From positions 1 through 64,000 of the forward strand of contig JAPSGB010000008.1 of the NCBI GenBank assembly GCA_035063585.1: DNA of 64,000 nucleotides, given 5' to 3'. A program made the position numbers and the translations under genes. Every line of letters begins with the position of its first letter. Within the stretch, counting starts at the first letter, position 1. This DNA comes from Polyangiaceae bacterium. GTDB lineage: Bacteria; Myxococcota_A; Polyangia; Polyangiales; Polyangiaceae. The notes under the pieces are model-generated. The model made no database searches. It saw only the letters and a list, made by a program, of their open reading frames with translations, and was not told the origin of the DNA. This document shows, piece by piece, positions 22,600 to 47,732 of the stretch.

Positions 22600-24014
22600 C
22601 GAAGGCATTTCCCGAGCGCGGCATCCCGCGCGAAGCGATCCTGGCGCGGCTCGGCGCGCAGAAGGAGGGCGACCTCGCCAGCGACGGCCGCGCCTTCGCG
22701 TTCGTCTACGACGCGGGGGACGAGCTGCGCGGGCTCGCGCGAGAGGCGTTCGCGGCGTGCATGGGCATCAATGGGCTCGATCCCACCGTGTATCCCTCCG
22801 CGCGCCGCATCGAGAGCCAGGTGGTGCACGCGGCGCTCGAGCTCTTGAACGCCCCGGAAGGGGCGGTCGGGACCGCGACCGCAGGTGGCACGGAGAGCGT
22901 GATGCTGGCGGTGAAGACCGCTCGGGACTTCTTCCGCGACCGGGTGAAGCGGCCGAAGATGCTGCTGCCCGAGACGGCGCACGCCTGCTTTCACAAGGCC
23001 GCGCACTACCTCGGCGTCGAGGTGGTGGTGGTGGACGTCGATCCGGTGACCATGCGCGCGAGCGTGGCCGACGCGCGCGCGAAGCTGGACGATGACGTCG
23101 TCTTGGTGGTCGGCTCGGCGCCGAGCTACGCGCACGCGGTCATCGATCCCATCGCGGAGCTGGCGGAGCTCGCCCAGCAGCGCGGGGTCCTGATGCACGT
23201 GGACGCCTGCGTGGGCGGATGCGTGCTGCCGTTCATGCGCGACAACGGGGTCGAGCTGCCGCCCTTCGACTTTCTGGTCGAGGGAGTGACCAGCATCTCG
23301 CTCGATCTTCACAAGTATGGATTCGCGCCGAAGGGGATCTCGCTCCTGCTCCAGCGGCGACGCGAGCTCCGCGACGCGCAATATTACGCGTGCGCGCGCT
23401 GGCCGGGCTACGCCATCGTGAACTCGACCACGCTCGGCTCGAAGTCGGTGGCTGCGATGGGCGCGGCCTCCGCCATCATCGAGTGGCTCGGGCGCGAAGG
23501 CTACCGGGCGCGAGCCCGTGAGATGTGGGCAGCCACCGAGAAGCTGGTCGCCGCCATCGATGAGCTCGACGGCGTCCACCTGGTCGCTCGTCCTGACATG
23601 AATCTGCTCGCCTTCACGACCGACGGCGGGGACGTGTTCGAGCTCGCCGACCGGCTCACCGAGCGCGGCTGGCACGTGCAGCCGACCTACGCCTACGGGC
23701 GCTCGCCGGCGCACATCCACTTGACCCTCGACCCCGGCAACGCGGCGCGTGTGGACGCCTTCATCGCGGATCTGCGGGCGAGCGTGGTCGGGCTCCCGCC
23801 CACCGAGCTCCCGCCGGAGGGCGTGGTCGCCATGCTCGAGCACCTCGGGTCCGGCGGCGGTGGGGCCGACACCGGCGCGCTCATGAACGAGCTCGGCATC
23901 ACCGACGGTCGCATGCCTGAGCGGAGCGGTGCCATCCACCGGCTCCTGAACGCGGCATCGCCCGGGACGCGCGAGCGGCTGCTCGTGCTCTTCATCGGGG
24001 AGCTCTTCTCATGA
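22596..24014 (+). CDS. PLP-dependent sphingosine-1-phosphate lyase-like protein (group II decarboxylase fold)
   Basis: GGTES, AHACFHKAA, HVDACVGG, SISLDLHKYGFAPKG; start MTKAFP at 22596 after GGAGGAG, ATGA overlap with tetR. Confidence 0.85.
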   Translation: MTKAFPERGIPREAILARLGAQKEGDLASDGRAFAFVYDAGDELRGLAREAFAACMGINGLDPTVYPSARRIESQVVHAALELLNAPEGAVGTATAGGTESVMLAVKTARDFFRDRVKRPKMLLPETAHACFHKAAHYLGVEVVVVDVDPVTMRASVADARAKLDDDVVLVVGSAPSYAHAVIDPIAELAELAQQRGVLMHVDACVGGCVLPFMRDNGVELPPFDFLVEGVTSISLDLHKYGFAPKGISLLLQRRRELRDAQYYACARWPGYAIVNSTTLGSKSVAAMGAASAIIEWLGREGYRARAREMWAATEKLVAAIDELDGVHLVARPDMNLLAFTTDGGDVFELADRLTERGWHVQPTYAYGRSPAHIHLTLDPGNAARVDAFIADLRASVVGLPPTELPPEGVVAMLEHLGSGGGGADTGALMNELGITDGRMPERSGAIHRLLNAASPGTRERLLVLFIGELFS

Positions 24015-25543
24015 TCCGGCTGGGTCGCGGCGGTCGCCCGCTCCGCATCGGTTACGGGCGCATCTTTCACGAGGCGAACGCCTATTCGCCCATCCGGACG
24101 GTGCGCGCCGATTTCGAGCGCCTTCATCAGCTCGAGGGCGCCGAGCTCGCGCGGGCCGCGTCGCTCCGCGGGCAGGAGCTCGCCGCCTTCATGCCGCACG
24201 CGGAGCTCACCGGCTTCGTGCAGGCCGCGCGCGCGGCCGGCGGCGTCGAGGCGGTGCCTCTGACCTCGTCGTTCGCGGTGCCGAGCGGCCCGCTCACCCG
24301 CGAGTGCTTCGACTCGATCGTGGCCGGGCTCGCCGATGCAGCGCGGAGCGCGGGGCCGCTCGACGGGATCTACCTCGCGCTCCACGGCTCGATGCAGGTG
24401 GACGGGCTCGGCGAGGCCCCCGAGACGGTCATCATCCGGCGCGTTCGCGAGGCCGCGCCGGGAGCGCGCATCGCGGTGAGCTACGACCTCCACGCGAACC
24501 TGTCGTCGGGGATGGTGGACCCGACCGAGGTCATGGTCGCCTATCGCACGAACCCCCACTGGGACTTCGCACCGACCGGGTTTCGTGCCGGAAATCGCCT
24601 GATCCGCGCGCTTCGCGGTCAGGTGCGCCCGGTCCACGCCTGGCGGAAGCTGCCGATGGTGCTCGGGGGAGGGATGACCATCGATTTTCTCGCGCCGATG
24701 CGCGGCGTGTTCCGCTGGATGCGTCACCTCGAGCGCGATCCTCGGGTGCTCACCGCGAGCCTATTCATGGTGCACCCCTACACGGCCGCCAAGGATCTCG
24801 GCTGGGCCGCGCACGTGTGCACCGACGGTGATCGCGAGCTCGCCGAGCGGCTCGCCGACCAGCTCGCCGAGCGCGCCTGGAAGCAGCGGGACGTCCCCAT
24901 GCCGCCGCTCCGCGGGGTGGATGCGGCGCTCGACGAGGTCCGCGCGTCCGGCTGGAGACGGCTCGGCCCCGTCACGCTCGTCGACGTGGATGACATCGTC
25001 GGGGCGGGCGCCCCCGGCGGGAACACCCACATCGTCGAGGCCCTCGCTCGCGACGATCGCGGCTTGAAGGCCTTCGTACCGGTGCACGATCCGGACGTGG
25101 CGCTGGCGGCCTTCGGCGAGCCGATCGGTACGCGGCGGCGCTTCACGCTCCGCGGCACCCCGGGCTATGGGCAGCCGGAGGTGAACCTCGACGCTACCGT
25201 GGCCGCGCGCACCGAGGGCGAGTTCGGACGCACGGTCCGCCTCGACACGGGTTCTTTCCATGTGGTCGTCTCGGAGCGCTCGCCGCTGCCCATCCACCCG
25301 AGCTTCTGGGCGAAGGTGGGGCTGGCGGCGCGCGACGCCGATCTCATCGTCCAGAAGAATTTCTTCCACTACCGGCTCTTCTACGCCACGACCTCGTTCC
25401 GGCACTTGCCGGTGGTGAGCGACGGAGCGACCAGCTTCAAGCGCGTGCTCGCCGGCCCCTACGAGCTGCCGCGCCACCCTTCGACGAGGATCTCCGACTG
25501 GCGAACCTACGACGAGGCGCTCCGAAACTCGAGCTTTGCCTGA
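24011..25543 (+). CDS. M81 family metallopeptidase (MlrC-like)
   Basis: FHEANAYSP, LALHGSM, DLHANL, YRTNPH, D..GAGAPG motifs; ATGA overlap. Confidence 0.85.
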   Translation: MIRLGRGGRPLRIGYGRIFHEANAYSPIRTVRADFERLHQLEGAELARAASLRGQELAAFMPHAELTGFVQAARAAGGVEAVPLTSSFAVPSGPLTRECFDSIVAGLADAARSAGPLDGIYLALHGSMQVDGLGEAPETVIIRRVREAAPGARIAVSYDLHANLSSGMVDPTEVMVAYRTNPHWDFAPTGFRAGNRLIRALRGQVRPVHAWRKLPMVLGGGMTIDFLAPMRGVFRWMRHLERDPRVLTASLFMVHPYTAAKDLGWAAHVCTDGDRELAERLADQLAERAWKQRDVPMPPLRGVDAALDEVRASGWRRLGPVTLVDVDDIVGAGAPGGNTHIVEALARDDRGLKAFVPVHDPDVALAAFGEPIGTRRRFTLRGTPGYGQPEVNLDATVAARTEGEFGRTVRLDTGSFHVVVSERSPLPIHPSFWAKVGLAARDADLIVQKNFFHYRLFYATTSFRHLPVVSDGATSFKRVLAGPYELPRHPSTRISDWRTYDEALRNSSFA

Positions 25544-25572
25544 GGCTCGACGGAGGGGGATGCTCTCCCTCC

Positions 25573-26679
25573 GTGACTCGGAGACACTCGAGAGCCGCGG
25601 CTCACCGGCCTGTCGGCGAGCCGTTTCCACCGAAGCCGCCGCTCAAGGGACGGCGCAGCGAGCTCGCCGTGCTCGCGCAGGTCCTCGGCGAGCGCCATCC
25701 GACGCGGCTCGCGCTCGTCGGGGGCGGCGGGAGCGGGAAATCCACCCTCGCCGCCGCGCTCGGTTACCGGGTCGCGGGGCGGTTTCCGGGTGGGGTCCAC
25801 TGGTTTCGGGTCGGCGCGTGGGACGTCCGCACCCTCGGCGAGATCCTGGCGCTCAGGTTCGGCGTCGCCCGAGCGCACCCGTGGAAGGGACTCCGCGCCA
25901 CCCTGTCATCGCGCGGCCCCATGCTCATCGTGCTCGACAACCATGAGGACGACCGCGCGATCGCCGCCCTCTTCGAGCGGCTCGGCGAGATCGACGCGAG
26001 CGTCCTCATCACCGCGCGCCGCTGCCTGCTCGCGGGCGTCTCGATCTTCCCCGTGGTGCCCCCGCTCATCACCTCGGGGCGCGCAGCGTTCCCGAGCGCG
26101 GCGGGGTTGACCCGCCTGCTACGCTTCAACCCGCTCGCGCTCGACGTCGCGAGCGCGCTCATCGAGAGCGGGGAGACGACCGCGCGCGCGCTCGGCGAGC
26201 ACCTCTCGGCGCGCGGAGTCGGGAGGGTTCGTGTCATCGAACACGAGGACGATCTCCCCGAGGTGAAGTCGTTGGTGGAGTTTGCGTGGCGCAGGCTCGA
26301 CGGTGCGGCCAAGCGGCTCCTCGCCGTCCTCGCCCACACGGACGGGGACCATATGGACCGCGCGTCGCTCCTTCGCCTCGCGCGCGGCGGCGCGCGAGGC
26401 GAAGCGGGGCTCGAGCGTCTCCGGCGATGGCACGTGGTGGAAGAGCCGGTGGCGGACCGATTCTCGCTCCACGCCACGGTGCGCTACGCCGTCCTCCGCA
26501 AGACCCGGTTCGACCTCGGGCGCTACTTCGAGCACTATCTCACGCTCCTCGAGGCACATCCCGAGCGGCTCGCGCTCGAGCAATCGCACCTCTTCGCCTC
26601 GATGGAGCTCGCCCATGGGCGCGGCCGTCTCGAGGACGCGCTCCGGTTGAACGCGCTCCTCGCGCGCCTCGAAGCGTGA
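25573..26679 (+). CDS. NB-ARC/STAND-like P-loop NTPase
   Basis: Walker A GGGGSGKST, Walker B LIVLDN, LITAR sensor, NPLAL (GxP-like), LHATVR (MHD-like). Confidence 0.75.
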   Translation: MTRRHSRAAAHRPVGEPFPPKPPLKGRRSELAVLAQVLGERHPTRLALVGGGGSGKSTLAAALGYRVAGRFPGGVHWFRVGAWDVRTLGEILALRFGVARAHPWKGLRATLSSRGPMLIVLDNHEDDRAIAALFERLGEIDASVLITARRCLLAGVSIFPVVPPLITSGRAAFPSAAGLTRLLRFNPLALDVASALIESGETTARALGEHLSARGVGRVRVIEHEDDLPEVKSLVEFAWRRLDGAAKRLLAVLAHTDGDHMDRASLLRLARGGARGEAGLERLRRWHVVEEPVADRFSLHATVRYAVLRKTRFDLGRYFEHYLTLLEAHPERLALEQSHLFASMELAHGRGRLEDALRLNALLARLEA

Positions 26680-26694
26680 GCGCGCGACCCCGAG

Positions 26695-28374
26695 CTACTT
26701 CTCGTGGCAGTCCTTGCACTCGCGAGCCGGGCGCCGGCCGGACGCGTGACACTCGTAGCAGAGCACGCTATCGTGCCCCTTGATGTCGAGGTGGTCGCGC
26801 GGCATCTGCCAGGGGTGCCAGTCAGGGTAGGGCTCGGCCACCGGCTCGCCGAACCGCGCCATCGGACCGCGAACGGGCTGGGTGTGGCAGGCGCCGTCGC
26901 AGGAGTGGGTGAGCACGCGGCCGTCGGGCGCTACGTGCCGCCCGTCGTGGCAACGGAAGCAGCCGGGCCAGTAGCGGTGCCCGAGGTTCACGGGATAGGT
27001 GCGCCAATCTACCTTCATCTTGGGGAAGACTCCGCGAGCGTAGATCGATGAGGTCACCTCGGCGGCGCGGTCCACGTCGCCCCTGCGGCTCGCGAGCAAC
27101 TCTGGGTAGCGCTTCGAATAGAAGTCGCGGACATAGGCGCGGATCCCCTGCTGCGCATCGTCCTCGTCCTGATACTCGCGGAACAGCGCGTCGACGGCGA
27201 CCTCTTTGATCCAGGGCAGATCCTTCGCGAGCAGCCCGCCGAGGAGCGCTTGATCGACCGTGGAGTCGGGGGTCGGGAAGTTGTGCGCCGGGCGGTTGTG
27301 GCAATCCATGCAGTCCATCTGGCGGCGAGGCAGCCTCTCCATCGCTGGGACGGTCATCTTGGACGCCGTGTCTACGTAGACGGTCTCCGAGCCGTCGGGG
27401 CGGCGAACCTTGACCCACGGGATCTTCTGCAGTCGCTCGTCCGCGGCCGCGTAGGTGACCGTGTTGTCGATGAGCATGTGCCAGTGGATGCCGTCGCCCT
27501 CGCCGTGCGCCGGCGAGCCGCCACCGATCTTGAGGTTCAGCGTGATCTGCTCGGCGTCGTTGCCCTCGTTGTAGCGGTAATGTGAGAGCTGCACCATCCG
27601 AGTGCCCCAGGCCTTCTCTCGCCAGTGGCAGTGCTCGCAGGTCTCGCGGGCGGGGCGGAGGTTGTGGACGGGCGTCGGGATCGGGCGCGCGTAGCGGTTG
27701 GTGATGACGCCCCAGAGCTGGCGAGCGCCGCTCATCTTGGATTTCAGATACCAGTCGACGCCCTCGCCAACGTGACACTCGACGCAGCGCACCCGCGCGT
27801 GCGGAGAGTCGAGGTAGGCGGTGTGCTCCGGCTGCATCGGCACGTGGCACACCTGCCCGCAGAAGGTCACGCTCTCGGTGTAGTGAAATCCTTGGTAGCT
27901 CGCCCAGACGAGCAGCACGGTGCCCACCGCGCCGGCGACGATGGCGCCGAGGAAGAACCGGCGTTGCCTCCGGTCGTTGAGATCGATGCGCGGGTAGGGC
28001 AGCGCGCCGAGCTGGTGGTGCTTCTTGCGCCGTCCGGCCTCCCAGCGCATGCCGCCGAGGATGAGCACGCCGCCCAGGCCCATGAAGCTCGGGAACAGGA
28101 TGTAGCTGAAGATGTCCGCGTAGGGGTTCGGGCGATCGCTGGTGAGCTGCGCGAGCACCGACAAGACAGTGAGCGCGGCGCCGAGGACCACCGTCATCGC
28201 GCCCACGTTGCTGACGATGTTGTAGTAGAGCGGCGCTGGCCGCGGCCGCTCCGGCGGCTCGCCGGATCCGGCGGGGGCGCCGGGGGGCGGTGCGCTCGGC
28301 TCGGCGCTCTCCGGGGCGCTCTCGGGTAGGGCGCTCTCGGGCGGGGCGGTGGGCTCGGCGTCTTCGTTGGTCAT
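26695..28374 (-). CDS. ImcH-like inner-membrane NapC/NirT multiheme cytochrome c (3 TM, 8 heme motifs)
   Basis: Three TM helices, then CGQVCH, CVECH, CEHCH, CMDCH, CFRCH, CDGACH, CYECH, CKDCH; SPHARV, PARETC, GIHWH and NRPAH segments recalled as typical of ImcH. Confidence 0.85.
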   Translation of the reverse strand: MTNEDAEPTAPPESALPESAPESAEPSAPPPGAPAGSGEPPERPRPAPLYYNIVSNVGAMTVVLGAALTVLSVLAQLTSDRPNPYADIFSYILFPSFMGLGGVLILGGMRWEAGRRKKHHQLGALPYPRIDLNDRRQRRFFLGAIVAGAVGTVLLVWASYQGFHYTESVTFCGQVCHVPMQPEHTAYLDSPHARVRCVECHVGEGVDWYLKSKMSGARQLWGVITNRYARPIPTPVHNLRPARETCEHCHWREKAWGTRMVQLSHYRYNEGNDAEQITLNLKIGGGSPAHGEGDGIHWHMLIDNTVTYAAADERLQKIPWVKVRRPDGSETVYVDTASKMTVPAMERLPRRQMDCMDCHNRPAHNFPTPDSTVDQALLGGLLAKDLPWIKEVAVDALFREYQDEDDAQQGIRAYVRDFYSKRYPELLASRRGDVDRAAEVTSSIYARGVFPKMKVDWRTYPVNLGHRYWPGCFRCHDGRHVAPDGRVLTHSCDGACHTQPVRGPMARFGEPVAEPYPDWHPWQMPRDHLDIKGHDSVLCYECHASGRRPARECKDCHEK

Positions 28375-28395
28375 GGTGGAGGCCTTCTCTCGACG

Positions 28396-30567
28396 CTACT
28401 TGGTCGCAGTAAAGAGGTGGCAGGCTGCGCAGCTTTGCGCGTTCGGCTGGTGGCGGGTCCGGTCCTCGTGGCAGCTGAGGCAGTCGGCGCGGCTAGGCAG
28501 CTTGCGCGCGTGCGTGTCGTGGCAATCGGTGCAGCGCGCCTTGGCCTGATGGAGCTGGTGCGCTGCTGGGAGGCGCTCGTGGCAGGAGGCGCAGGAGGGC
28601 GGGGTGAAGGTGTGCGGCTGGTGGCACGAGCTGCACGTCGAGTGGGTGGGCCCGCGGCCCTTCGCCGCGCTCGCTTCGCGTGCATGGCAGCTCGAGCACG
28701 TCGACCGGAGGTCCTTGGGCGCGCGGTGCACGTCGTGGCACGACGCGCACTGGTGCCGGGTGCCCGTGACCTCGCGCGTCGCTCCGGCGTGACACTGGTT
28801 ACACGCTTTCGGGCGGGTCGGATCGTGCGGGGCGTGGCAGCTCGCGCACGCCTGATGCGCGGGGGGCTTCCAGGCCGACGCCCCCGCGGCCCGCTCCGCG
28901 TGGCACGACGCGCAGGGGGCCGCCACCAGCCCGGGGCCGTGCGCTTCCTCGTGGCAGGTCGTGCAGACCGCGTGCTTGCCGCTAGGCGCCTCGTCCGCGT
29001 GGCAAGTCTTGCACGCCGTCTTCTGGCCGATGGGCGGTCCGTGCTGCTCGTGACACTGGGTGCATGGGCGACCGGTGTGCGGGCCGGTGGTCGGGTTCTG
29101 GTGGCAGCTCGCGCACGCGGCCGGGGTCGCGCCGAAGGAGTGCTCCTCGTGGCAGCTCAGGCAATCCCTGTGCTTGGGCGGCGGCGCGGTGGAGACCAGC
29201 TTCACCTGTCGCGCGTGGCAGCTCTTACAAGCACCGAGCGCCGCGGCCGGCGCGTGCGGCTCGTGGCAGGTCCGGCAGGCCCGCGCGCGGTGCTCCGGCA
29301 CCGAGCGCGATAGCGTGGCGGACTGCTGCCCGTGACAGGCGGCGCAGTCCTTGGAGCGCGCTGCGTCGAGGTGCGGATCATGGCACGTGGCGCACGAGGC
29401 GTGACGGTTCGCGGTCTTGCCCGCGTGGCAGGTGGCGCAGCGCGCGGTGGGCTCGGCGGACACGTGCGGCTGGTGACAGTTTTCGCACTCGCCGTGCGTC
29501 TTGGCATCCCAGGAGGCGAGCTTCAGCACGTTGTCGGCGTGGCAGTCGCGGCAGCCTTGCGTCGCCGCCACGAAGTCATGCGGCTCGTGACACTGCGAGC
29601 AGCGCTGGTGCTTGGCCGCGGTGGTGTTGGCCGCGGCCTCGGCCTCGTGGCAGTTCGCGCAGGAGGTCATGAGCACCGTGCGCGGGCTGTGCGGCTCGTG
29701 GCAGGTAGTACACGAGAAGCGGTCCGGCATCTTCTCGTGGTGAGACTCGTGGCTCACCTTGGCGTGGCAGAGTGAGCAGTCTCGGCCACGGGAGCGCGCG
29801 TCGTCGCTCTGCTCGTGCGGCTGGTGGCAGAGCGCACAGGTCTGGAGGTTGCCGTGGAGCATCGATGACTCGATGGCCTTGGCCGGGACGCGCTCGGGGA
29901 GGAGCGACTTCGGATCCGGCTCGTCGGTCCCGCCGTGGCAGCGCTGGCAGAGGGCGGTCGGGGTGGCGGCGCCGCTCCCCATCGTGCGGCGAAAATTGTG
30001 GCAAGACAGGCACGAGATTTCGCGATGCTCGCTCACCGCGTGCGCGCCGTAGGTCTTGAGCTGGGTGTGGCACTCCGCGCACGCCGCCGCTCGCGGTGGG
30101 TTCTCGTGGTTCTTCGCGGCGTGGCAGGCCGAACACTCGAGCGGCGGGCTTGGCTGGGTGAGGTGCTCGACGTGGCTCTTGCTCTCGAGGAGCCGGCCCT
30201 CCGGGCTCGCGCCGCTCAGGTGGCAGCTCTTGCAGCGCGCGAGGTCGACCGCCCCGTGCGGCGTGGCTCGGGTGCTCGAGACCAGCCCGAGCGCCCACTG
30301 CTTCAGGTCCTGAGAGACTCGAGACTCGTGGCAGGCGGTGCAAGCCAGCTTCGCGTGCGCGCTCGCGTGTGCTGCCTGCGCGCTGCCCGCGTGACACGAG
30401 CCGCAGAAGTCGGGGCGCTTCACCCGCGCCCGCGCGCCGAGTAGGCCCAGCCCAACCAGCATGAGCAGCGCGAGCGGCAGCGCCCAGCGGAGCCACTTCG
30501 AGCGCAGCCACGCGGTGCGCCGCAAGGCTGGTGAGGCCGGCTCTTCGGGAGGAGGCGTCGAGGTCAC
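28396..30567 (-). CDS. Membrane-anchored 34-heme cytochrome c
   Basis: One N-terminal TM helix; 34 CxxCH counted by hand in 723 aa. Confidence 0.92.
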   Translation of the reverse strand: MTSTPPPEEPASPALRRTAWLRSKWLRWALPLALLMLVGLGLLGARARVKRPDFCGSCHAGSAQAAHASAHAKLACTACHESRVSQDLKQWALGLVSSTRATPHGAVDLARCKSCHLSGASPEGRLLESKSHVEHLTQPSPPLECSACHAAKNHENPPRAAACAECHTQLKTYGAHAVSEHREISCLSCHNFRRTMGSGAATPTALCQRCHGGTDEPDPKSLLPERVPAKAIESSMLHGNLQTCALCHQPHEQSDDARSRGRDCSLCHAKVSHESHHEKMPDRFSCTTCHEPHSPRTVLMTSCANCHEAEAAANTTAAKHQRCSQCHEPHDFVAATQGCRDCHADNVLKLASWDAKTHGECENCHQPHVSAEPTARCATCHAGKTANRHASCATCHDPHLDAARSKDCAACHGQQSATLSRSVPEHRARACRTCHEPHAPAAALGACKSCHARQVKLVSTAPPPKHRDCLSCHEEHSFGATPAACASCHQNPTTGPHTGRPCTQCHEQHGPPIGQKTACKTCHADEAPSGKHAVCTTCHEEAHGPGLVAAPCASCHAERAAGASAWKPPAHQACASCHAPHDPTRPKACNQCHAGATREVTGTRHQCASCHDVHRAPKDLRSTCSSCHAREASAAKGRGPTHSTCSSCHQPHTFTPPSCASCHERLPAAHQLHQAKARCTDCHDTHARKLPSRADCLSCHEDRTRHQPNAQSCAACHLFTATK

Positions 30568-30582
30568 GGTGCGCTGCGCGGG

Positions 30583-32265
30583 TCAGGGAACGCGGAAGGT
30601 CACGTCGCCGTCGACGTGGAGCTCCGGGCGGATGAAGTCGAGGTTCGAGTCGAGGTTCTCGTGGCAGGTCGCGCAGTCATCGGCGTTCGCCGGGTGCGGT
30701 GCGGGCGGTGGGAGCCCGTGACAGGTGCCGCACGCGGCCTGGGTGCCGTCGACCGTGGTCCAGAGCGGCCGGGTGAGCGCGCCGCCGGAGGCGTGCCCCG
30801 CGACGAAGTGCTCGCCGTGGCAGTAGGTGTTCCGGCAGGTCGCGCCGTCGAGCGTCGGTGCGGCGCCCCACGCGACTGCGACCCCGGAGAAGGTCAGCTC
30901 GGCAGGTCGGGGCGAGTCGAGATGGCCCGGAGCGCGCCACCCGCTCGGGACGACGTGACACTCGCCGCACGGCACCGCGCGCGCGCGGCCGCTCGAGACG
31001 AGGTGCGCCTGGTGCGCGCCGACCGCCATCATCGAGGTCGCCGTCTCGCCGCCGACCCCGCGCGGCGGCGCGTCGTTCGCGCTGCTGCCGTGGCACGCGT
31101 TGCACGCGGTGGGCGCGGAGACGTCGACCACCCCATCGACGTGCCGCCCTCGGGAGATGATCGAGTGATCGTCGGGGCCCACCACCTCGCCGTGGCAAAG
31201 CGAGCAGCGCTGCATCTGCGGGTGCGGCGCGGCCGGCGGCAGGCCGTGGCACGAGTCGCAGTCGAGCGGCGCGCCCGTCCGCGTCCACGCGGGCGAGGGC
31301 CTCGGCGCGGCCGGCTCAGGCGAGTGGCACCAGGTGTCTCCGCAGGAGCGGCTCGCGCGATCGAAGTCGGGGGCGTGGCCATGAGCCGCCGCCACTCCAG
31401 CCATGTGCACTTCGGCGGGGGCGCCGTCCATGTGGAGCGGGTCGTCCCACTTGGCGGGGATGTGATGGCACTCGCCGCAGGTGAGCGGGCGTCCGTGGTC
31501 GCCGCCCCCGAGGTGGCGCTGGTGCGCGCCGACCCCGGGCGAGCTCGGGTCGGTGTCGCCGTTTACCGCGCTCGGGGGCGCCGGGTTCTTCGCGTTGCCG
31601 TGGCAGTCGTTGCAGGCGACCGCGCGCACGTCCACCACGCCGTCGACGTGACGCTCGGGCGCGATGAAGTCGCGGTGCCCGCTCGCATCCGCCGCGCCCA
31701 CCACCTCCCCATGACAGGTCTCGCAGCGGGTAGTTTGCGGGTGCGGCGCGGCCGGCGGCAGGCCGTGGCAGGTGCCGCAGATCTCGGGCTCGGGGCGCTG
31801 GCGCGTCCACACCGGGCGGGCGCGGCCGTGGCAGTAGGAGTCGGAGCAACTCCGGGTGTTCGGATCGTAGCTCGGCGCGCGGCCGCCCTCGGCGGCGAGC
31901 GCCCCGAACCGGAGCTCGGCGGGGCGGTCGCTGTCGGCGTGGCCGGGCTCGAGCGCGGCCTTCGGTACCAGGTGGCACTCACCGCAGGCGACCGCGCCGT
32001 GCGTCGCGCTCGCGTAGAGGTGGCGCTCGTGGGCGCCCACGCCGGGGTACTCGGGCGAGGTGTTGCCGTTCAGATCGCGCGGCGGCGCGGAGCGCTGGAG
32101 CGGGGTGCCGCCCCGCGTGTCATCGCCGTGGCAGCGCGCGCAGTCACCGGTCGCGCGGGGCGCTTGCTCCGAGTCTGCGCGCTCGAGGCATGACGGGAGC
32201 CCCGCCACGAGGCCGGCGGCCATGAGCGCCAGCGCGCCGAGGCTCGTCGCTCGGCTACCCGCCAT
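30583..32265 (-). CDS. CxxxxCH/CxxCH-domain multiheme lipoprotein (15 heme motifs, 3 repeats)
   Basis: Start MAGSRA at 32265; lipobox-like LPSC; three modules, each CX2CH, CX2CH, CX4CH, CX2CH, CX2CH. Confidence 0.88.
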   Translation of the reverse strand: MAGSRATSLGALALMAAGLVAGLPSCLERADSEQAPRATGDCARCHGDDTRGGTPLQRSAPPRDLNGNTSPEYPGVGAHERHLYASATHGAVACGECHLVPKAALEPGHADSDRPAELRFGALAAEGGRAPSYDPNTRSCSDSYCHGRARPVWTRQRPEPEICGTCHGLPPAAPHPQTTRCETCHGEVVGAADASGHRDFIAPERHVDGVVDVRAVACNDCHGNAKNPAPPSAVNGDTDPSSPGVGAHQRHLGGGDHGRPLTCGECHHIPAKWDDPLHMDGAPAEVHMAGVAAAHGHAPDFDRASRSCGDTWCHSPEPAAPRPSPAWTRTGAPLDCDSCHGLPPAAPHPQMQRCSLCHGEVVGPDDHSIISRGRHVDGVVDVSAPTACNACHGSSANDAPPRGVGGETATSMMAVGAHQAHLVSSGRARAVPCGECHVVPSGWRAPGHLDSPRPAELTFSGVAVAWGAAPTLDGATCRNTYCHGEHFVAGHASGGALTRPLWTTVDGTQAACGTCHGLPPPAPHPANADDCATCHENLDSNLDFIRPELHVDGDVTFRVP

Positions 32266-33313
32266 GGCAATACCTGCACATCGCGGCGCTCTCCGACCGC
32301 GCGCTCTTCCACCCGTGGGGGTGGGGGTTGCCGCCCGAGCCGCCGACCTTGTGGCAGAGCACACAGTTGGTGGCCGGCCCCTGGTCGTGGCACGCCGCGC
32401 AGGCCAGGATGTCGCGGCGCGCGGCGCGGCCGTGGAAATCCCGATCGTTCGGGTTCGAGCCCATCCAGGCGCGCGGGTGCGGGCTCGCGCCGTTCACGGC
32501 GTTGCCGCTCACGCCACGGCGCGCATGGCAGGCGTCGCAGCTCTCGGTGGTGTGGCAGCTCAGGCACTTGCCGGGCTGCGATTTCGCCTCGATGGCGTGC
32601 ACGCCGAGGAAGTCGCCGGGGTGCGCGAAGCGGCGGTCGATGCGCTCCGGCTCGCGCTGCTCCACCCGGAGGCCCTGGGACACGTCGTGGCAGTCATTGC
32701 ACGACGCTTCGGTGTGGCAGTTCTGGCACATCGCCGGTGCCTCACGCGCGGCCGTGCCGTGACGGCGCTGGAACGCGGCATCGTGGCGAAGGAAGGTCTC
32801 GGGCAGGAGCCGAGACAAGGTCGAGCTCTCGTGGCACGGCGCGCACTCGGCGCGATCCCACTGCTCCTGGTGTTCGTGGCAACGGAAGCAGCTCTTCATG
32901 TCCGGGAAGGGGCTCGCGGGCCCGGCGGACTCGTCCGCCACCACGCCTCCGTGACAGGGCACGCACTGACCTTGGAGCTTCGGCATGGCGAGGTGCTCGG
33001 CGTGATTGAACGAGACCGTGCGCGCGATCGAGAGCGCGCGATCCTCGGGCGGCGGCGCCGCGGCGAGGAGCGCGCGCTCGCCGGGCGCGTGGCAGCGCTG
33101 GCACACCTCGACCGTGGGCAGCGGGTTCACGCCGGTCTCGACCGCGTGGCAGCTCGCGCAGCTCAGGCACTTGGGCTGGCCGGGGCCGCCGCAGGAGAGC
33201 TTGGTGAGGTGCTCGGGATGTGAGAACCGGGGCCGCGACCTGGTGCAGGCGGCGGCGAGCGCCGCGCCGAGCGTCATGGCGAGCAGCGCGCGAGACCAGC
33301 GCCGAACCGTCAT
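32255..33313 (-). CDS. Dodecaheme cytochrome c (cytochrome c3-like/ExtA-like), lipoprotein signal
   Basis: Start MTVRRW at 33313; LAAAC lipobox; 12 CxxCH; FSH..H and FNH..H c3-type motifs. Confidence 0.88.
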   Translation of the reverse strand: MTVRRWSRALLAMTLGAALAAACTRSRPRFSHPEHLTKLSCGGPGQPKCLSCASCHAVETGVNPLPTVEVCQRCHAPGERALLAAAPPPEDRALSIARTVSFNHAEHLAMPKLQGQCVPCHGGVVADESAGPASPFPDMKSCFRCHEHQEQWDRAECAPCHESSTLSRLLPETFLRHDAAFQRRHGTAAREAPAMCQNCHTEASCNDCHDVSQGLRVEQREPERIDRRFAHPGDFLGVHAIEAKSQPGKCLSCHTTESCDACHARRGVSGNAVNGASPHPRAWMGSNPNDRDFHGRAARRDILACAACHDQGPATNCVLCHKVGGSGGNPHPHGWKSARSESAAMCRYCHGG

Positions 33314-34740
33314 GGCCCCTTCCCGTCGAGACCGTAGGTGGCTCGGACCAGCGCCTGCAGATCGGCGTCGGCGTAAGGCGTCCGCGCGAGGGAGCTCCCG
33401 AAGAGGAGCCTGAGCTCGTCGAGCGCGCGCCACTCGACGGTGCCCGCGTAGACCTCGGCGATCCGGCGCCCGGAGATCGCCTCGTCGTAGAGGTAGAGGT
33501 ACGCCTCCGCGGTCGCAGTGACGCGCCCCGCGATGCGCTGCCGGAGCGAGTCGCGGAGCGCCGTGTAGCCGTTGCCGGGCGCTCGAACTCGCGCGAGCCC
33601 CAGGCGAAGCACGGTGCGCTCCTCGCGGTCCGGGGCGACACGGAGCGCGAGGTCCCCGCGCGCGCCCGCGTCGCCCGCAGAGTAGTGTTGGAGATACCCG
33701 CCGCCCTCCACGCCGATGAGCGCGAGCGGCCGCCACGAGGCGGTCGCGCCGAGCTCGTCGAAGGTGTCGGCGCTGAACACGCTCAGCACCGACTGGCGCG
33801 ACAAGAGGAGCGCCGGCTCGGTGTGGAGGTACTCGACGCCGAGCCCGACCCCGCGCGCGGGGACGGTGTCCGCCCAGAGGCGCGCGTCGGCGAGCCCGAG
33901 GCCGTCGAGGTCGAGCACGGCCGCCCCGCCGGCGCTCGCCCAGTCGAGCGGCTCTAGCTGAAAATCTCCGCCGAGCGAGCGCCGCGCGAGCTCGCTCGAG
34001 GCATGCTCCTCATGGAACGAGGCACCGACCACGAGCGGCCCGCGCTCGTAGGAGGCACGCCCGCCCGCGAGCCAGTAACCCGAGCGGCGGGCCTCCGGGA
34101 GCGCCTCGGGCTCGCGGAGCAGCGTGTCGGCGGCGGCCCCGAGCTGCGCGTAGCCCGGGCGGCCGCTCCACCGCGGCAAGACCGAGAGGCCCGCGTACGC
34201 GTCCATCCCGAGACCGATCGCGAGCCGTGAGCCCGCGGCCGCGCCGTCGAAGCGCGCGAAGCGGGCGGCGCCGCCGGCGATGACCTGGCGGCCGAGGCGG
34301 ACCCAGCTGGGTCCGGCGTGAAGCCGGACGTTGGCGGTCTGGAGGTCGCCGTCGAGGCGACGGGCCGTGTCGAAATCCTCGGTGGCCGTCGCGGCGCCCC
34401 AGGCGGAAAGCTCGACGCTCGTGTCATCCTCGCCGAGCGTGTCGAGGTCGTCCGCGCGGAGCGAGACGTACTCGTACACGGGCGCGATGGTGTCGGTGGT
34501 GACGAGCGCGCCGTTGGGCCCGGGTAGGAGCGCGCGCTGGTAGAGTTGCAAGTATGTGGAGCTGTGGAAGCGCACGAGCGCGGCGTCCCCGCGCTCGGCT
34601 CGGGCGCCGCCGCCTCCGGCGCGCGCCGGAGGCGCGCCGAGGAGCGCAGCGGTCGCCAGGAGCGCGCAGGTGACGGCGGCGCCCCGAGGCGCGGCCCGGG
34701 GCTCCGGGCGCTGGGTCGGGGTTCTGCGCCGAGAAACCAC
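33310..34740 (-). CDS. Putative outer-membrane beta-barrel (porin of a porin-cytochrome conduit)
   Basis: Signal-like segment ending PARA; alternating amphipathic strands (VRLGRQ, ELGATASW, ALVRATY); position among multiheme genes. Confidence 0.65.
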   Translation of the reverse strand: MVSRRRTPTQRPEPRAAPRGAAVTCALLATAALLGAPPARAGGGGARAERGDAALVRFHSSTYLQLYQRALLPGPNGALVTTDTIAPVYEYVSLRADDLDTLGEDDTSVELSAWGAATATEDFDTARRLDGDLQTANVRLHAGPSWVRLGRQVIAGGAARFARFDGAAAGSRLAIGLGMDAYAGLSVLPRWSGRPGYAQLGAAADTLLREPEALPEARRSGYWLAGGRASYERGPLVVGASFHEEHASSELARRSLGGDFQLEPLDWASAGGAAVLDLDGLGLADARLWADTVPARGVGLGVEYLHTEPALLLSRQSVLSVFSADTFDELGATASWRPLALIGVEGGGYLQHYSAGDAGARGDLALRVAPDREERTVLRLGLARVRAPGNGYTALRDSLRQRIAGRVTATAEAYLYLYDEAISGRRIAEVYAGTVEWRALDELRLLFGSSLARTPYADADLQALVRATYGLDGKGP

Positions 34741-34746
34741 GCGGGG

Positions 34747-35571
34747 TCAGTTCTCCACGATGACCGCGTCCTCGAGCAGCGCCGGGTAGTGGTAGCCGAT
34801 GCCGATGTCCACGTCGGCTCGGAGCACCCCCTCCAGCGTGATGACCTCGCCCTGCTTCGGCTCGGCCTGGGTGGTGACGGCCAGATCGTTGGTGCGGCTC
34901 GCGGCGTCGCCCGAGCCGTCGCGTAGGTGGAGGAACGTCTTGCCGTTGATGCCCGGTGTGACCTTCACGACCACGCCCCGGATGCGGAGCTTCTTTCCCG
35001 CGAGCTTCGACAGCGACGCGTAGGCATCGCCGACCCGCTCGGCGTTCGCGCCGCTCGCCTTCTCCACCTTCGGGAGCGCGACCTCGTCCCCGGTCGTGGT
35101 CGCCGCAGGGTGACCGGTGGGCTCGCCGCCGGGGCTCGGGGCCGCGCTGGTCGGCGGATGACCCGGAGGAAGCGCGCCGGCGCCCGCGCTCGCCGCGCCG
35201 GCGCCGAGGTTGCCGAAATAGATGACCTCGAAGGTTCGGTCGAGCGTCGGGCTCCGAAATCCGTTCATCTGCGTCGCGCCGACCACGGTCACGCGCTCGC
35301 CCTTGGTGAGCTTCGCGAGCGGCACCGCCGCCCACCGCTCCCCGGCGCCGGTGTCGAGGCGGAGATAGGTGTACTCGGGGACGTCGAGCGCCTCGAGGAC
35401 GGTACCGCTCAGCGTCGCGCCGTCTTCCGCCGGTGGCTCGGTCGAGGGCGCCGGCGCATCTCTCCGCGCGGGCTCGGCGGTCGGCTGCGCCTTCGAGCCG
35501 GGGCGATCCAGATAGAATCCGAGGACCATCGCGGCCGCGATGGTCCCGCCGAGGAGGTAACCCATCTTCAT
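34747..35571 (-). CDS. NrfJ-like / OB-fold membrane-anchored protein
   Basis: SGTVLE...YTYL...W.AVP...MNGFRSPTLDRTFEVIYF, then IRGVVVKV..GINGKTFLHLRDGSG..NDLAVTT. Confidence 0.7.
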   Translation of the reverse strand: MKMGYLLGGTIAAAMVLGFYLDRPGSKAQPTAEPARRDAPAPSTEPPAEDGATLSGTVLEALDVPEYTYLRLDTGAGERWAAVPLAKLTKGERVTVVGATQMNGFRSPTLDRTFEVIYFGNLGAGAASAGAGALPPGHPPTSAAPSPGGEPTGHPAATTTGDEVALPKVEKASGANAERVGDAYASLSKLAGKKLRIRGVVVKVTPGINGKTFLHLRDGSGDAASRTNDLAVTTQAEPKQGEVITLEGVLRADVDIGIGYHYPALLEDAVIVEN

Positions 35572-35585
35572 GACGGACCGGCGAT

Positions 35586-35601
35586 AGCATCACTCGTGCC
35601 T
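35586..35601 (-). promoter_or_regulatory. Putative sigma54 promoter for the leftward cytochrome operon
   Basis: Minus strand AGGCACGAGTGATGCT, GG-N10-GC, 2 mismatches to consensus. Confidence 0.55.
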
Positions 35602-35705
35602 CGCGAGCACCGACGCCTGTCAGCGCTCATGCGGATCTCGCCTTCGAGGATGCTCAAGGACTTGCTAAACGCTCCAGCGTGACGAGCTCGGGCATCGAGC
35701 GAGGT

Positions 35706-35721
35706 TGGCGCGGTCTTCGCA
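35706..35721 (+). promoter_or_regulatory. Putative sigma54 promoter for the mtrC/omcA-like gene
   Basis: TGGCGCGGTCTTCGCA, GG-N10-GC, 2 mismatches to consensus. Confidence 0.5.
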
Positions 35722-35821
35722 TTTCAGCGACGCTTGCCTCGGCTCGGGCGAGTTTCGCGAAACCTTTTCTCTAGCGGCTGAAACGCGCGCAAATCGCGCG
35801 CAAACCGGACAGGCTCGAACC

Positions 35822-38107
35822 ATGAAGATCTCAAGCGAGAGCATCGTGACACGAGATACGGCTCGGCTGCGCGCGCTCGGTGCGGCCGTACTGCTCATGA
35901 GCGCGCTCTCGAGCGCCTGCTCGGGGGACGATGGCGGAACCGGGCCGCAAGGTCCGCCCGGGGAGATGGGCCAGCCGGGGCAACCCGGGCAACCCGGAGC
36001 ACCCGGAGAGGGAGGCCCGCCGGGTCCCATCGGCGAGGCTGGCGTGCCGGGCGAGGCGGGCGTGCCTGGAGAGGGAGGCCCGCCCGGCCGCGGGTTCTGG
36101 ATCACCGGCCCGGGGCTCGAGCTCACCTTCGAGAGCGCGAACATCGACGCGAGCGGCGTCGCCACGACGCGCTTCAAGCTCACGGACGCGAAGGGCGTCC
36201 CGCTCGACCTCGGCGGCCTCTACTCGGAGGGCGCCGTGAGCGTGAGCTTCGTCCTCGGGTGGCTCGACCTGAACTCCAAGGGCGAGGCTGGCCAGTATCA
36301 CTCGTACACCAACCGCGACCAGAAGAGCCCCATCACGGGCAATACCGCGAGCCAGGCCGCCGCCGACAGCGGCGGCAGCTTCACCGAGATCGGTGAGGGT
36401 CAGGGCGAGTACGAGTATCGCTTCAAGACGAACATTGCGGTGGGGAACCCTGCGCGCACACACACCATAGGCGCCTATGCGACGCGCACCTTCCAGGGGC
36501 AGCGCTACGTAGCGAACGCCACCCACGACTGGGTGCCCGCGGGTGGGACGCCGCTCGAACGCGAGCTCGTCAAGCAAGAGAACTGCGACAGCTGCCACGG
36601 CACGCTCGAGGCCCATGGCGGCGCCCGGCGCGACGTCAAGCTCTGCACCATGTGTCACAACGCGGACGTGGTCGACCCGGACACGGGCAACACCGTCGAT
36701 TTTCGCGTGATGGTCCACAAGATCCACCGCGGCGCGGAGCTGCCGAGCGTGGCTGGTGGGACGCCCTACGAGATCATCGGCTATAACCAGAGCGTCGCCG
36801 ACTACTCCGAGGTCGAGTTCCCACAGCCCATCCAGAGCTGCGACAAGTGCCACGGCGGCGCGTCGGACGGTGCGCGCTGGAAGCTCGAGCCGACCCAGGC
36901 CGCGTGCGGCTCGTGCCACGACGGCACCTGGTTCGGTGCTCAGGCCGCCACCCCGGCCGGGATGACCAACCACGGCGGCGGCGAGCGCGCGGACGACGCC
37001 GACTGCTCGGTCTGTCACAAGCCGAACGGGCTCGGGAGCGCTGACGTGGTCGCGAACCACTACACCACCGCCACCAACCCGGCGAGCCCGGTGGTCGCGG
37101 TGAACATCGTCCGCGTGGACGACACGGCGCCGGGCCAGACGCCGAAGGTCGTGTTCAACGTCACCGTGAACGGCGCCGCGCGCGACATCATCGCAAGCCC
37201 GATGAGCCGCCTCACCATGACCTTCGGCGGGCCGACCACCGATTACGCGGGCGTGGTCTCGTACGCGGTACAGGGCGGTAGCTCGAACGTCGGCACCCTC
37301 GCGGCCGACGGCGCGAACTTCAAGTACACGTTCCCAGCGCCGGTCGCCCTCGGCGCCACCGGGACGTACGCGGTGGGGGTCGAGGCCGCGATCCAGCCAG
37401 GAGGCGCCGGGCAACCGCAGTACTACGCGTACAACCCCGTCACTTACGTCGCGGTGACCGACTCGACGCCGAAGCCGCGCCGCGGGGTGGTGGCGACCAG
37501 CGAGTGCAACCAGTGCCACGGCACGCTCTCCGCCCACGGCGGCCCCCGGAACAACACCGAGTACTGCGCGATGTGCCATAACCCGAACACGGACATCGCG
37601 GCGCGCGTGGCCCGCTTCGAGGGGAGCACCGTCGAAGCGCCGACGGTCGCGTTCGCGAACATGATCCACGCGATCCACCGCGGCACCGAGCACGCCGAGC
37701 CGTACGCGCTCGGCGGCTATCCCCCGCCGACCCGAGCCAACCCGGGCGGCAACCAGCTCGACTTCACCAAGCTCGAATATCCGCGCCCGCAGAACGACTG
37801 CGCGGCGTGCCACGTGAACGAGAGCCAGCGGCTCCCACTCGCCGCGGGGCTCTTGCCGGTCAAGAGCGAGCTCCTCACCTGCACCGAGGATCCCGGCGCC
37901 GATGGCGACAGCTACTGCGACACGCGGAGCTCGATCGTCACCTTCACCCCGCCCACCAGCGCCGCCTGCACCGGCTGCCACGACTCCTCGTCCGCCAAGG
38001 CGCACGCCGAGCTCATGACGACGCCGAGCGGCGTGGAGAGCTGCGCCACGTGCCACGGGGTCGGCAAGGCGAACGACGCCGAGCGCGCCCACGCGCTCGC
38101 GCCGTGA
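35822..38107 (+). CDS. OmcA/MtrC-family decaheme cytochrome c lipoprotein with collagen-like stalk
   Basis: Lipobox SSAC; 5+5 CxxCH separated by a beta-rich domain; AHGG.R, MVHKIH and MIHAIH motifs; start at ATG 35822. Confidence 0.9.
35924..36094 (+). repeat. Collagen-like (Gly-X-Y)19 coding segment
   Basis: [57 protein letters not shown]. Confidence 0.92.
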
Positions 38108-38137
38108 GCCCGCCCCCGCGCGCCGCGCCGGCTCGAC

Positions 38138-38331
38138 CTCTGCGACCGCCTCGCGGGGATGTCGGTCCGGCGCAGGCCGAGCACGCCGAGCGCGCCGAGC
38201 TCTGCGACCGCCTCGCGGGGATGTCGGTCCGGCGCGGAACCGCGCGGGCCGCCCGGTCCCGCGTCGCAGCGCGCGCGCCTGGCACAGCACGCGCGCACGC
38301 CGCTCGCTCCGCGCGGTTCCGCGCCGGACCG
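38138..38331. repeat. 36-bp direct repeat pair plus 23-bp inverted REP-like arms between convergent genes
   Basis: ctctgcgaccgcctcgcggggatgtcggtccggcgc at 38138 and 38200; cggtccggcgcggaaccgcgcgg at 38225-38247, inverted at 38309-38331. Confidence 0.85.
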
Positions 38332-38347
38332 GCAACCAGCAGCCAGC

Positions 38348-43292: not shown

Positions 43293-43430
43293 GCGCCCGT
43301 GTTCGACCCGGAGCGTGTGATCCAGCGCGGCGTCCCGGCTCGCCGGCTTGCTCCGCTCGACGCCTCGGAGCTTACGGGAGCATAGAGCGCACCCGGCGTT
43401 CATCTCGGCCCACTGCGCTCGGATCTTATT

Positions 43431-43449
43431 GAAAATGCAAATCAGTATC
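43431..43449 (+). promoter_or_regulatory. Fur box
   Basis: GAAAATGCAAATCAGTATC matches GATAATGATAATCATTATC at 15/19; conspicuous AT island heading an iron-related operon. Confidence 0.8.
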
Positions 43450-45090: not shown

Positions 45091-45109
45091 GTCACAACGA
45101 GAGAACGTC

Positions 45110-46195: not shown

Positions 46196-46304
46196 CGACA
46201 TGCCCAACCTAGCTCGCAACGGCGCGCCCGCGTGGGGGCGCGCCCCGGGGACACCGTGCGGTTCCGGGGAGGGGGAGCGCGTGCCGCCGGGCGAGCAGCG
46301 GGGA

Positions 46305-47696: not shown

Positions 47697-47732
47697 CGGG
47701 ATGATGGCGCGAGCCGGCGACGTGACCTGATC

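Follow-up and report, generated by a model that had tools for sequence, protein, structure and literature searches.

In the first 64,000 nucleotides of contig JAPSGB010000008.1 (assembly GCA_035063585.1, a Polyangiaceae bacterium), hereafter the window, seven adjacent genes between positions 26695 and 38107 appear to encode a chain of 79 hemes leading from inner membrane to cell surface. We interpret this locus, from its sequence and from structural models, as a trans-envelope conduit that most likely serves outward extracellular electron transfer (EET) when oxygen and nitrate run short, which suggests that the host may be able to respire solids outside the cell. This reading is carried by the homology of two gene products to ExtB and ExtC of Geobacter, by the model of their complex, by the quinol-site residues of an ImcH-type protein, by conserved gene linkage, and by the lack of a catalytic partner in the locus. 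The features are the following (aa, amino acids; TM, transmembrane).

26695..28374, minus strand: quinol dehydrogenase of the ImcH family, located in the inner membrane (559 aa with 8 heme motifs and 3 TM helices)
28396..30567, minus strand: 34-heme periplasmic wire with an N-terminal TM anchor (723 aa, 21 aa per heme)
30583..32265, minus strand: 15-heme lipoprotein (c15) of the TIGR01904 type, candidate surface-side extension, with three tandem five-heme modules
32255..33313, minus strand: 12-heme lipoprotein (c12), predicted to fill the barrel, hemes 5-9 homologous to ExtC
33310..34740, minus strand: 22-strand outer-membrane beta-barrel, ExtB homolog (AlphaFold2 model and profile comparison)
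34747..35571, minus strand: heme-free exported protein of no named family (earlier label NrfJ-like), with no family or structure match
35572..35821, no strand: divergent intergenic region of 250 bases between the operon and mtrC, read from the sequence
35822..38107, plus strand: OmcA/MtrC-family decaheme lipoprotein (761 aa, TIGR03507, Gly-X-Y stalk)

The original prediction described a leftward operon and a divergent decaheme gene with about 79 heme motifs. All seven open reading frames (ORFs) were confirmed in place, six leftward and mtrC divergent, and our recount gives 74 CxxCH and 5 longer motifs, that is 6 CxxCH and 2 Cx3CH in the ImcH-like protein, 34 in the wire, 12 and 3 Cx4CH in c15, 12 in c12 and 10 in MtrC. 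Only 11 ORFs of the 5.14 Mb genome carry at least three CxxCH motifs, and 74 of their 111 motifs sit in this locus. The six leftward genes overlap or are spaced by 6-21 bases; the probable starts of c15 (ATG 32265), c12 (ATG 33313) and MtrC (ATG 35822) differ from those of the longest ORFs. Third-position GC content is 0.90-0.92 in all seven genes, matching that of the adjacent housekeeping genes (0.88-0.94), so the seven frames are real and native-looking coding sequence. Four contig pieces from DNA run X14, which is not flagged as a possible source, cover positions 24000-38167 with one 22-base gap, and the locus is therefore no chimera of this assembly. No sigma-70 consensus promoter was found in 35572..35821, where the promoter and terminator scan was uninformative.

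A single scan of species-level genomes with the barrel confirmed 104 relatives; the locus counts given here refer to the best 80 of these 104, of which 36 are full length and 44 incomplete.

The 476-aa product of 33310-34740 was modelled by AlphaFold2 with 22 long strands (pLDDT 83), in agreement with the barrel originally proposed there. Its best structural matches are 22-26-strand outer-membrane barrels (Z up to 20), with MtrB at rank 24 (Z 15.7), and neither Pfam/NCBIfam nor PDB sequence searches returned a match. A Geobacter extABCD contig, whose proteins share 90% clusters with those of G. sulfurreducens PCA, was obtained using a primer from the supplement of PMC6148476. The barrel profile scores 35.5 bits with G. 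sulfurreducens ExtB, compared to a maximum of 6.6 for shuffled sequences (best of 120 reported, of 200), and both ends align; the pairwise BLASTP match is weak (E 4e-5). The c12 profile scores 74.6-75.3 bits with ExtC (E 4e-25; heme-preserving shuffle maximum 24.3), and BLASTP finds 32% over 117 aa, ExtC aligning to hemes 5-9 of c12, whose N-terminal hemes are c7-like. A lipobox-like signal is present in 76 of 76 c12 relatives by a simple rule, and the order barrel then c12-type gene is conserved in 76 of the 80 loci. An ExtC-type lipoprotein cytochrome thus directly follows an ExtB-type barrel, with 12 hemes instead of 5. The ExtABCD-type assignment of the original prediction stands in this form, with the barrel as ExtB homolog and the dodecaheme protein as ExtC homolog; the mapping of the dodecaheme protein to ExtA, the soluble periplasmic dodecaheme of Geobacter, was rejected, as the c12 profile reaches only 4.0 bits with ExtA (shuffle mean 2.4).

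The barrel and mature c12 were also modelled together, as had been suggested. The complex scored 0.82, compared to 0.11 for the best of three controls; the overlap in contacts between runs is 84% or more and the partner pLDDT is at least 73. Of the pairs used for calibration, 116 of 157 solved and 2 of 215 mismatched ones attained this mark, counts that apply only roughly to the alignments made for this work. The modelled contacts run along most barrel strands and the loops and involve mainly c12 residues 131-327 (hemes 5-12), placing c12 inside the 22-strand barrel in the model. The search for a solved sequence relative of the interface found none for either protein, and the pass of the complex model may reflect likeness to MtrAB. 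A second, distant pair of the same family, a barrel and a 13-heme protein, lies elsewhere in this genome (G000:C21:70150-73082, L121:7151-10083; barrel profile E 6e-7, 12-heme profile E 9e-29), with no other multiheme gene in 19.7 kb.

At the inner membrane, the ImcH-like label of the original prediction is borne out. The ImcH family is defined by 3 TM helices, a Cx3CH motif beside helix 3, 5-9 CxxCH motifs and NapC/NirT similarity (PMC6295460). The protein encoded here agrees in its 3 TM segments, in Cx3CH as its first heme motif, in its motif count and in its NapC/NirT similarity (partial PF03264 match; NrfH structure match, E 7e-4), and it carries all five pocket residues. E167/H177/K213/Q219/Y228 correspond, at a constant offset of 40 and by matched positions instead of a direct GSU3259 alignment, to E127/H137/K173/Q179/Y188 of G. 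sulfurreducens ImcH, which form the heme-1 pocket lining the quinol site (10.1101/2023.05.03.539133). Among the relatives, the H, K and Q of this site are present in 8 of 8, E in 6 of 8 and Y in 7 of 8.

The 34-heme wire has a TM anchor and no lipobox, and a lipobox-like signal occurs in only 1 of 20 relatives of the 34-type. It is the positional counterpart of ExtA. Behind the TM anchor it starts with a degenerate NapC/NirT-like three-heme stretch, and we considered the protein as a NapC/NirT fusion. This candidate was rejected: on the profile of the neighbouring NapC family its opening three hemes reach no more than 6.3 bits (ImcH 11.2; medians of 6.1 for the 34-type and -1.2 for the 27-type; most internal windows under -4), conservation does not extend to the quinol-site lysine helix, and an ImcH or CbcL-like gene is still found in 20 of the 22 34-type loci. 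The stretch is probably only a degenerate relic. In GSU1996 and MtrA each heme adds about 1 nm of length; by this rough measure, 34 hemes in line would outreach the width of the periplasm.

Two lipoprotein cytochromes are candidates for the surface end. The match of c15 to TIGR01904, which the original prediction had proposed to check, is clear (126.5 bits, cut-off 27) and falls into three stretches, with one Cx4CH in each five-heme module. By the same simple rule as for c12, a lipobox-like signal is found in 60 of 63 relatives, and the gene stands directly after c12 in 60 of 64 loci. Its model, made with no hemes, has pLDDT 76 and pTM 0.59; no solved fold was found via Foldseek or VIA-align and no PDB sequence via profile, which does not imply a new fold. 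The c15 profile does not match the first 93 residues of ExtD, the part before the contig end. In four loci (L057, L104, L107, L112) the Cx4CH lipoprotein ranges from two modules (10 hemes) up to 37 motifs, and this variation in module number suggests an extension of adjustable length.

The second candidate, MtrC, scores 431 bits with TIGR03507 (cut-off 209.3), which bears out its proposed MtrC/OmcA identity; it has 10 CxxCH motifs and two PF22113 stretches, and its closest solved structure is OmcA (4lmh, E 1e-26). The lipobox cysteine (Cys33) is followed by a Gly-X-Y stalk of 19 triplets (residues 35-91, bases 35924-36094) with a PF01391 match slightly below cut-off, and such a stalk is present in 11 of 11 heme-bearing MtrC of related loci. 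The stretch from heme 8 to heme 9 contains its two non-heme cysteines. The heme-free protein encoded between the barrel gene and mtrC has a conserved LPPGHP motif and a nearly invariant His. It has no match in Pfam/NCBIfam, in the structure search or in PDB; its relatives bear the public names 'OB-fold' or 'nucleotide-binding'. No NrfJ model or named record occurs among its family, structure and database matches, and the label NrfJ-like is left unconfirmed. We see it as a possible assembly factor.

Together, these parts can be arranged in a path. ImcH, by its family membership, would take electrons from quinol in the inner membrane and pass them to the anchored 34-heme wire, which could span the periplasm without soluble shuttles. 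The ExtC-derived c12, modelled inside the ExtB-type 22-strand barrel, would carry them on, and the acceptors reduced at the surface by c15 and/or the collagen-stalked MtrC/OmcA protein would be oxides of Fe(III)/Mn(IV), conductive particles or humic matter. MtrC might thereby take the place of the ExtD-type outer partner of Geobacter, working without MtrAB.

The survey shows that the cluster is modular, with a constant barrel/12-heme/Cx4CH core, swappable inner modules and exchangeable collagen-stalked surface cytochromes. Besides the barrel and c12-type gene, the 80 loci contain a Cx4CH protein in 64 cases, a long wire in 57, the heme-free protein in 39, MtrC in 12 (one a cut fragment) and ImcH in 8. 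A quinol dehydrogenase of a known EET family (ImcH, CbcL-like or NapC/CymA-like) is found in 54 of 58 wire-bearing loci. The inner modules are mutually exclusive. The 33-34-heme TM-anchored wire, in 22 loci, is accompanied by ImcH (7) and/or a 9-11-heme CbcL-like protein (19), together 20, and never by NapC, whereas the 27-heme lipoprotein wire, in 36 loci, is accompanied by a NapC/NirT tetraheme in 34 and a collagen-stalked hexaheme in 23, and never by ImcH or a CbcL-like protein. Four truncated or frameshifted genes, three of them wires and one a cut NapC, were placed by hand for these assignments, and 22 loci have no wire in the available stretch. Since the loci are related to one another, Fisher tests were not counted as evidence. 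Four of six CbcL-like members tested match cytochrome b561. When 72 12-heme proteins were placed on a quick tree, five changes of wire type were seen, and strong branches force no fewer than three of them.

The exchangeable surface proteins are diverse: a collagen-bearing multiheme protein of some family is present in 29 of the 36 full-length loci. Collagen-stalked six-heme lipoprotein-like cytochromes from loci with the NapC-type architecture (L045:17235-18653 and 24 similar ORFs, with 5+1 or 4+2 motifs) show a weak PF02335 match and PDB matches only to collagens. Other candidates combine a collagen stalk, carboxypeptidase-regulatory-like domains and 8-9 hemes (L038:656-3463, L068:17532-19775, L087:13873-16560) or bear Big_2 Ig domains (L078). 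Frameshifts in cytochrome or barrel genes of L037, L055, L082 and L110 are probably sequencing errors. Phylum-wide, the 12-heme profile reaches E ≤1e-20 in 141 of 301 Myxococcota genomes, where the weaker hits may be other multiheme proteins, and a barrel adjoins the 12-heme gene in all of the best 30 matches. The modular cluster is widespread in Polyangiaceae-type genomes. The rare two-system hybrid first described here was accordingly an overstatement: this is one version of a common cluster, and a one-sentence remark in the preprint of Olmsted et al. (10.1101/2022.03.26.485925) already notes that Myxococcota metagenome-assembled genomes (MAGs) hold many novel multiheme clusters with MtrC, ExtABC and CbcL. 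Four of the 80 loci, close relatives without exception, combine ImcH, MtrC and the barrel, and so does G014, with the distant barrel subfamily.

As originally noted, there is no MtrA/MtrB pair: in this genome, which is 93% complete, TIGR03509 has no match and the best TIGR03508 hit is 20 bits (cut-off 192). We extended this comparison to 61 genomes of the same order, partly overlapping the 80-locus set. MtrC is over cut-off in 13 of them and ImcH occurs in 3, while the MtrB model matches in none; as a positive control, the same model is over cut-off in 9 of 301 genomes of the phylum, with 0 of 23 in the host's family. In 11 of the 13 MtrC-bearing genomes, no more than about 10 kb separates a full-length MtrC from a barrel of this family; MtrC and barrel are on separate contigs in G028 and G048. 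In G001:C29, G033:C134, G048:C478 and G060:C280, ORFs of 926-1346 aa show split matches to the OmcA/MtrC model.

It is possible, though we would not bet on it, that the conduit is real and MtrC a mere neighbour, the exit being c15 or the C-terminal hemes of c12, with MtrC fed by lateral collision like OmcA or serving the barrel and 13-heme pair of contig C21. The divergent transcription of mtrC, its presence in 12 of 80 loci and the very existence of that second pair are consistent with such an arrangement, as is G038, where a second MtrC has no barrel in 20 kb (L126). On the other hand, the linkage of MtrC to this barrel family recurs, distant subfamily included, in changing gene orders.

In line with the Polyangiales-like organism predicted from the sequence, the host is Polyangiaceae-like, its named close relatives being Polyangiaceae or Myxococcales MAGs. 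The stretch is present in 20 of 24 listed runs from 9 studies (sludge, wastewater, bioreactor, aquatic), 12 of them flagged as possible sources. The genome encodes NarG over cut-off, three heme-copper oxidase subunit I family genes, alternative complex III and three cytochrome c assembly genes; NrfA was not found. Other multiheme ORFs outside the locus are G000:C14:87345-89540 (7+2 motifs), C5:55194-57173 (5) and C31:28205-29824 (3+1).

We consider it unlikely that the same conduit is run inward, drawing on Fe(II), reduced humics, neighbour cells or conductive particles as electron sources and supplying quinone for nitrate or oxygen respiration. The oxidases, NarG and alternative complex III of the host would fit this use, and the CbcL- and CymA-type partners of other cluster versions are known from Fe(III) reducers as well as from Fe(II) oxidisers (PMC6295460). 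This version, however, uses ImcH, which is reported only in Fe(III) reducers (PMC6295460) and is needed for high-potential acceptors (PMC4251993, 10.1101/2023.05.03.539133), and oxidiser conduits usually have no MtrC analogue (10.1101/2022.03.26.485925). Our inference of outward flow follows from the occurrence of ImcH in organisms that reduce high-potential acceptors (PMC4251993, PMC6295460).

Equally improbable in our view is a heme capacitor, in which the 79 hemes would be charged with reducing equivalents whenever flocs or soil turn briefly anoxic and would later pass these on to oxygen or shuttles, growth on solids being slight. The sludge, wastewater and bioreactor habitat, where the redox state cycles, and the resemblance of the host to a facultative aerobe agree with storage; moreover, the family is widespread in Myxococcota, most of which are, to our knowledge, not known as metal reducers. 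Storage, though, needs neither a cytochrome-filled porin nor exchangeable stalked surface cytochromes such as the collagen-bearing multihemes of 29 of 36 full-length loci. Lastly, lipoproteins can face the periplasm, so the cytochromes might be periplasmic parts of a soluble terminal reductase beside an unrelated channel, a very improbable reading that is largely refuted by the ExtB/ExtC homology, the complex model, the barrel beside the best 30 phylum-wide 12-heme matches, and the locus itself, which contains no catalytic partner (NrfA or a molybdoenzyme) and no CxxCK motif protein.

Several observations weigh against outward EET as we propose it. Of the 80 related loci (44 of them incomplete), 68 lack MtrC and 72 lack ImcH, so neither is a fixed part. 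The aerobic oxidases and the nitrate reductase make other acceptors available to the host. The menaquinone markers MqnA and MenD are not over cut-off in this 93% complete genome, although ImcH is a menaquinol oxidase. Metatranscriptome runs X19 and X20 yield only short pieces, at depth 3-11, of parts of the locus, and these are not clear expression because DNA may be present in RNA libraries. Between the wire and ExtA, homology is marginal (53.7 bits; heme-preserving shuffles mean 34.7, sd 5.8, maximum 51.6).

Among known systems, the closest is ExtABCD of Geobacter (GSU2645-2642), defined by Otero et al. and required for electrode reduction (PMC6148476). Both have a barrel, then a homologous lipoprotein cytochrome, then another, with a heme-dense periplasmic cytochrome nearby. 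They differ in that ExtC has 5 hemes in 155 aa and its counterpart here 12, that the ExtA position is held here by an anchored 34-heme wire of marginal similarity, that a quinol dehydrogenase and MtrC lie within the same cluster here, and that 18 strands are predicted for ExtB, compared to 22 in our barrel model. Replacement of the outer lipoprotein by non-orthologs is described as frequent (Otero et al., PMC6148476). With Shewanella MtrCAB/OmcA the locus shares an OmcA/MtrC-family decaheme lipoprotein over cut-off and the cytochrome-in-porin design; it lacks MtrA and MtrB, its Gly-X-Y stalk of 19 triplets is only short in OmcA, and the two non-heme cysteines between hemes 8 and 9 set its MtrC apart from MtrC/OmcA of Shewanella. 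The ImcH-like protein resembles GSU3259 in its 3 TM helices, its Cx3CH first motif and its E/H/K/Q/Y heme-1 pocket, and differs in having 8 motifs instead of 7 and in being clustered with a conduit, GSU3259 being monocistronic (PMC4251993). Zhong and Shi did not find mtrAB beside imcH (PMC6295460), which is true here too.

Three further systems were compared by description only. PCC3 of Proteobacteria (He et al. 2017, PMC5566968) is likewise an envelope-spanning cluster, in which a porin and a protein of the inner membrane accompany cytochromes very rich in heme; its porins are much larger (up to 42 predicted segments), and its inner-membrane protein is a five-helix b-heme protein with two HX13H motifs. 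No ORF of that kind was found in the locus, where the inner-membrane protein is ImcH. The Anaeromyxobacter pcc cluster (Shi et al. 2014, PMC4245776), also from a myxobacterium, pairs a porin with a 12-14-heme cytochrome of about 340 aa; it comprises two genes only and was found via OmbB/OmaB homology. The peat clusters EET1-4 (10.64898/2026.05.27.727921) combine porins and multihemes with MtrC-like proteins in Acidobacteriota/Verrucomicrobiota. Mtr, Omc and Pcc occur together in Desulfobacterota, there with mtrAB (Shaw et al., PMC12133095). We found no description of this locus architecture in the literature searched, including excerpts of PMC10553843 and PMC12307469; most subscription papers lay outside the search, and the supplements of two bioRxiv surveys may list members. 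The excerpts of PMC8805035 do not mention imcH, Myxo or collagen, and those of PMC12545173 and PMC11475568 do not mention Myxococc/Polyangi. What appears to be new is an ExtC-derived barrel filling, a giant anchored wire, a clustered quinol dehydrogenase and an MtrC without MtrAB, as predicted variations on an ExtABCD-type theme.

Two neighbouring stretches of the window were also inspected. The GC-rich intergenic stretch 3' of mtrC (38108-38347) contains a sequence of about 36 bases in two copies; many loose contig joins map there, suggesting a genome-wide repeat. The genes at 43348-50669 encode a porin-like protein, an imelysin (PF09375), a beta-propeller/cytochrome c protein bearing a hydrazine synthase alpha-like domain, and a di-heme oxidoreductase (PF06537); together they look like an iron-uptake cluster.

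The findings extend EET hardware to myxobacteria of a group that is commonly regarded as aerobic; one scan detected close versions of the cluster in 104 species-level genomes. The inner-module swaps (ImcH/CbcL versus NapC) on a constant core form a natural series for studies of redox-potential tuning, and the natural cases of MtrC without MtrAB bear on the question, raised for Desulfobacterota (PMC12133095), whether MtrC outside Shewanella uses MtrAB. The complex model also makes a prediction for Geobacter, as the segment that it puts inside the barrel is the ExtC-homologous one, whereas in published descriptions ExtC is a lipoprotein of the outer surface and the periplasmic partner is ExtA (PMC6148476, PMC11492766). 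We tentatively propose, while regarding it as more doubtful than the conduit itself, a modular wire of the Polyangiales in which the stalked MtrC/OmcA protein is served by an ExtB barrel with an extended ExtC inside and one anchored 34-heme protein is enough to bridge the periplasm, without any soluble shuttle. If this is true, ExtC rather than ExtA would lie inside the ExtABCD porin of Geobacter, and a large group of soil and sludge myxobacteria would be unrecognised electroactive organisms.

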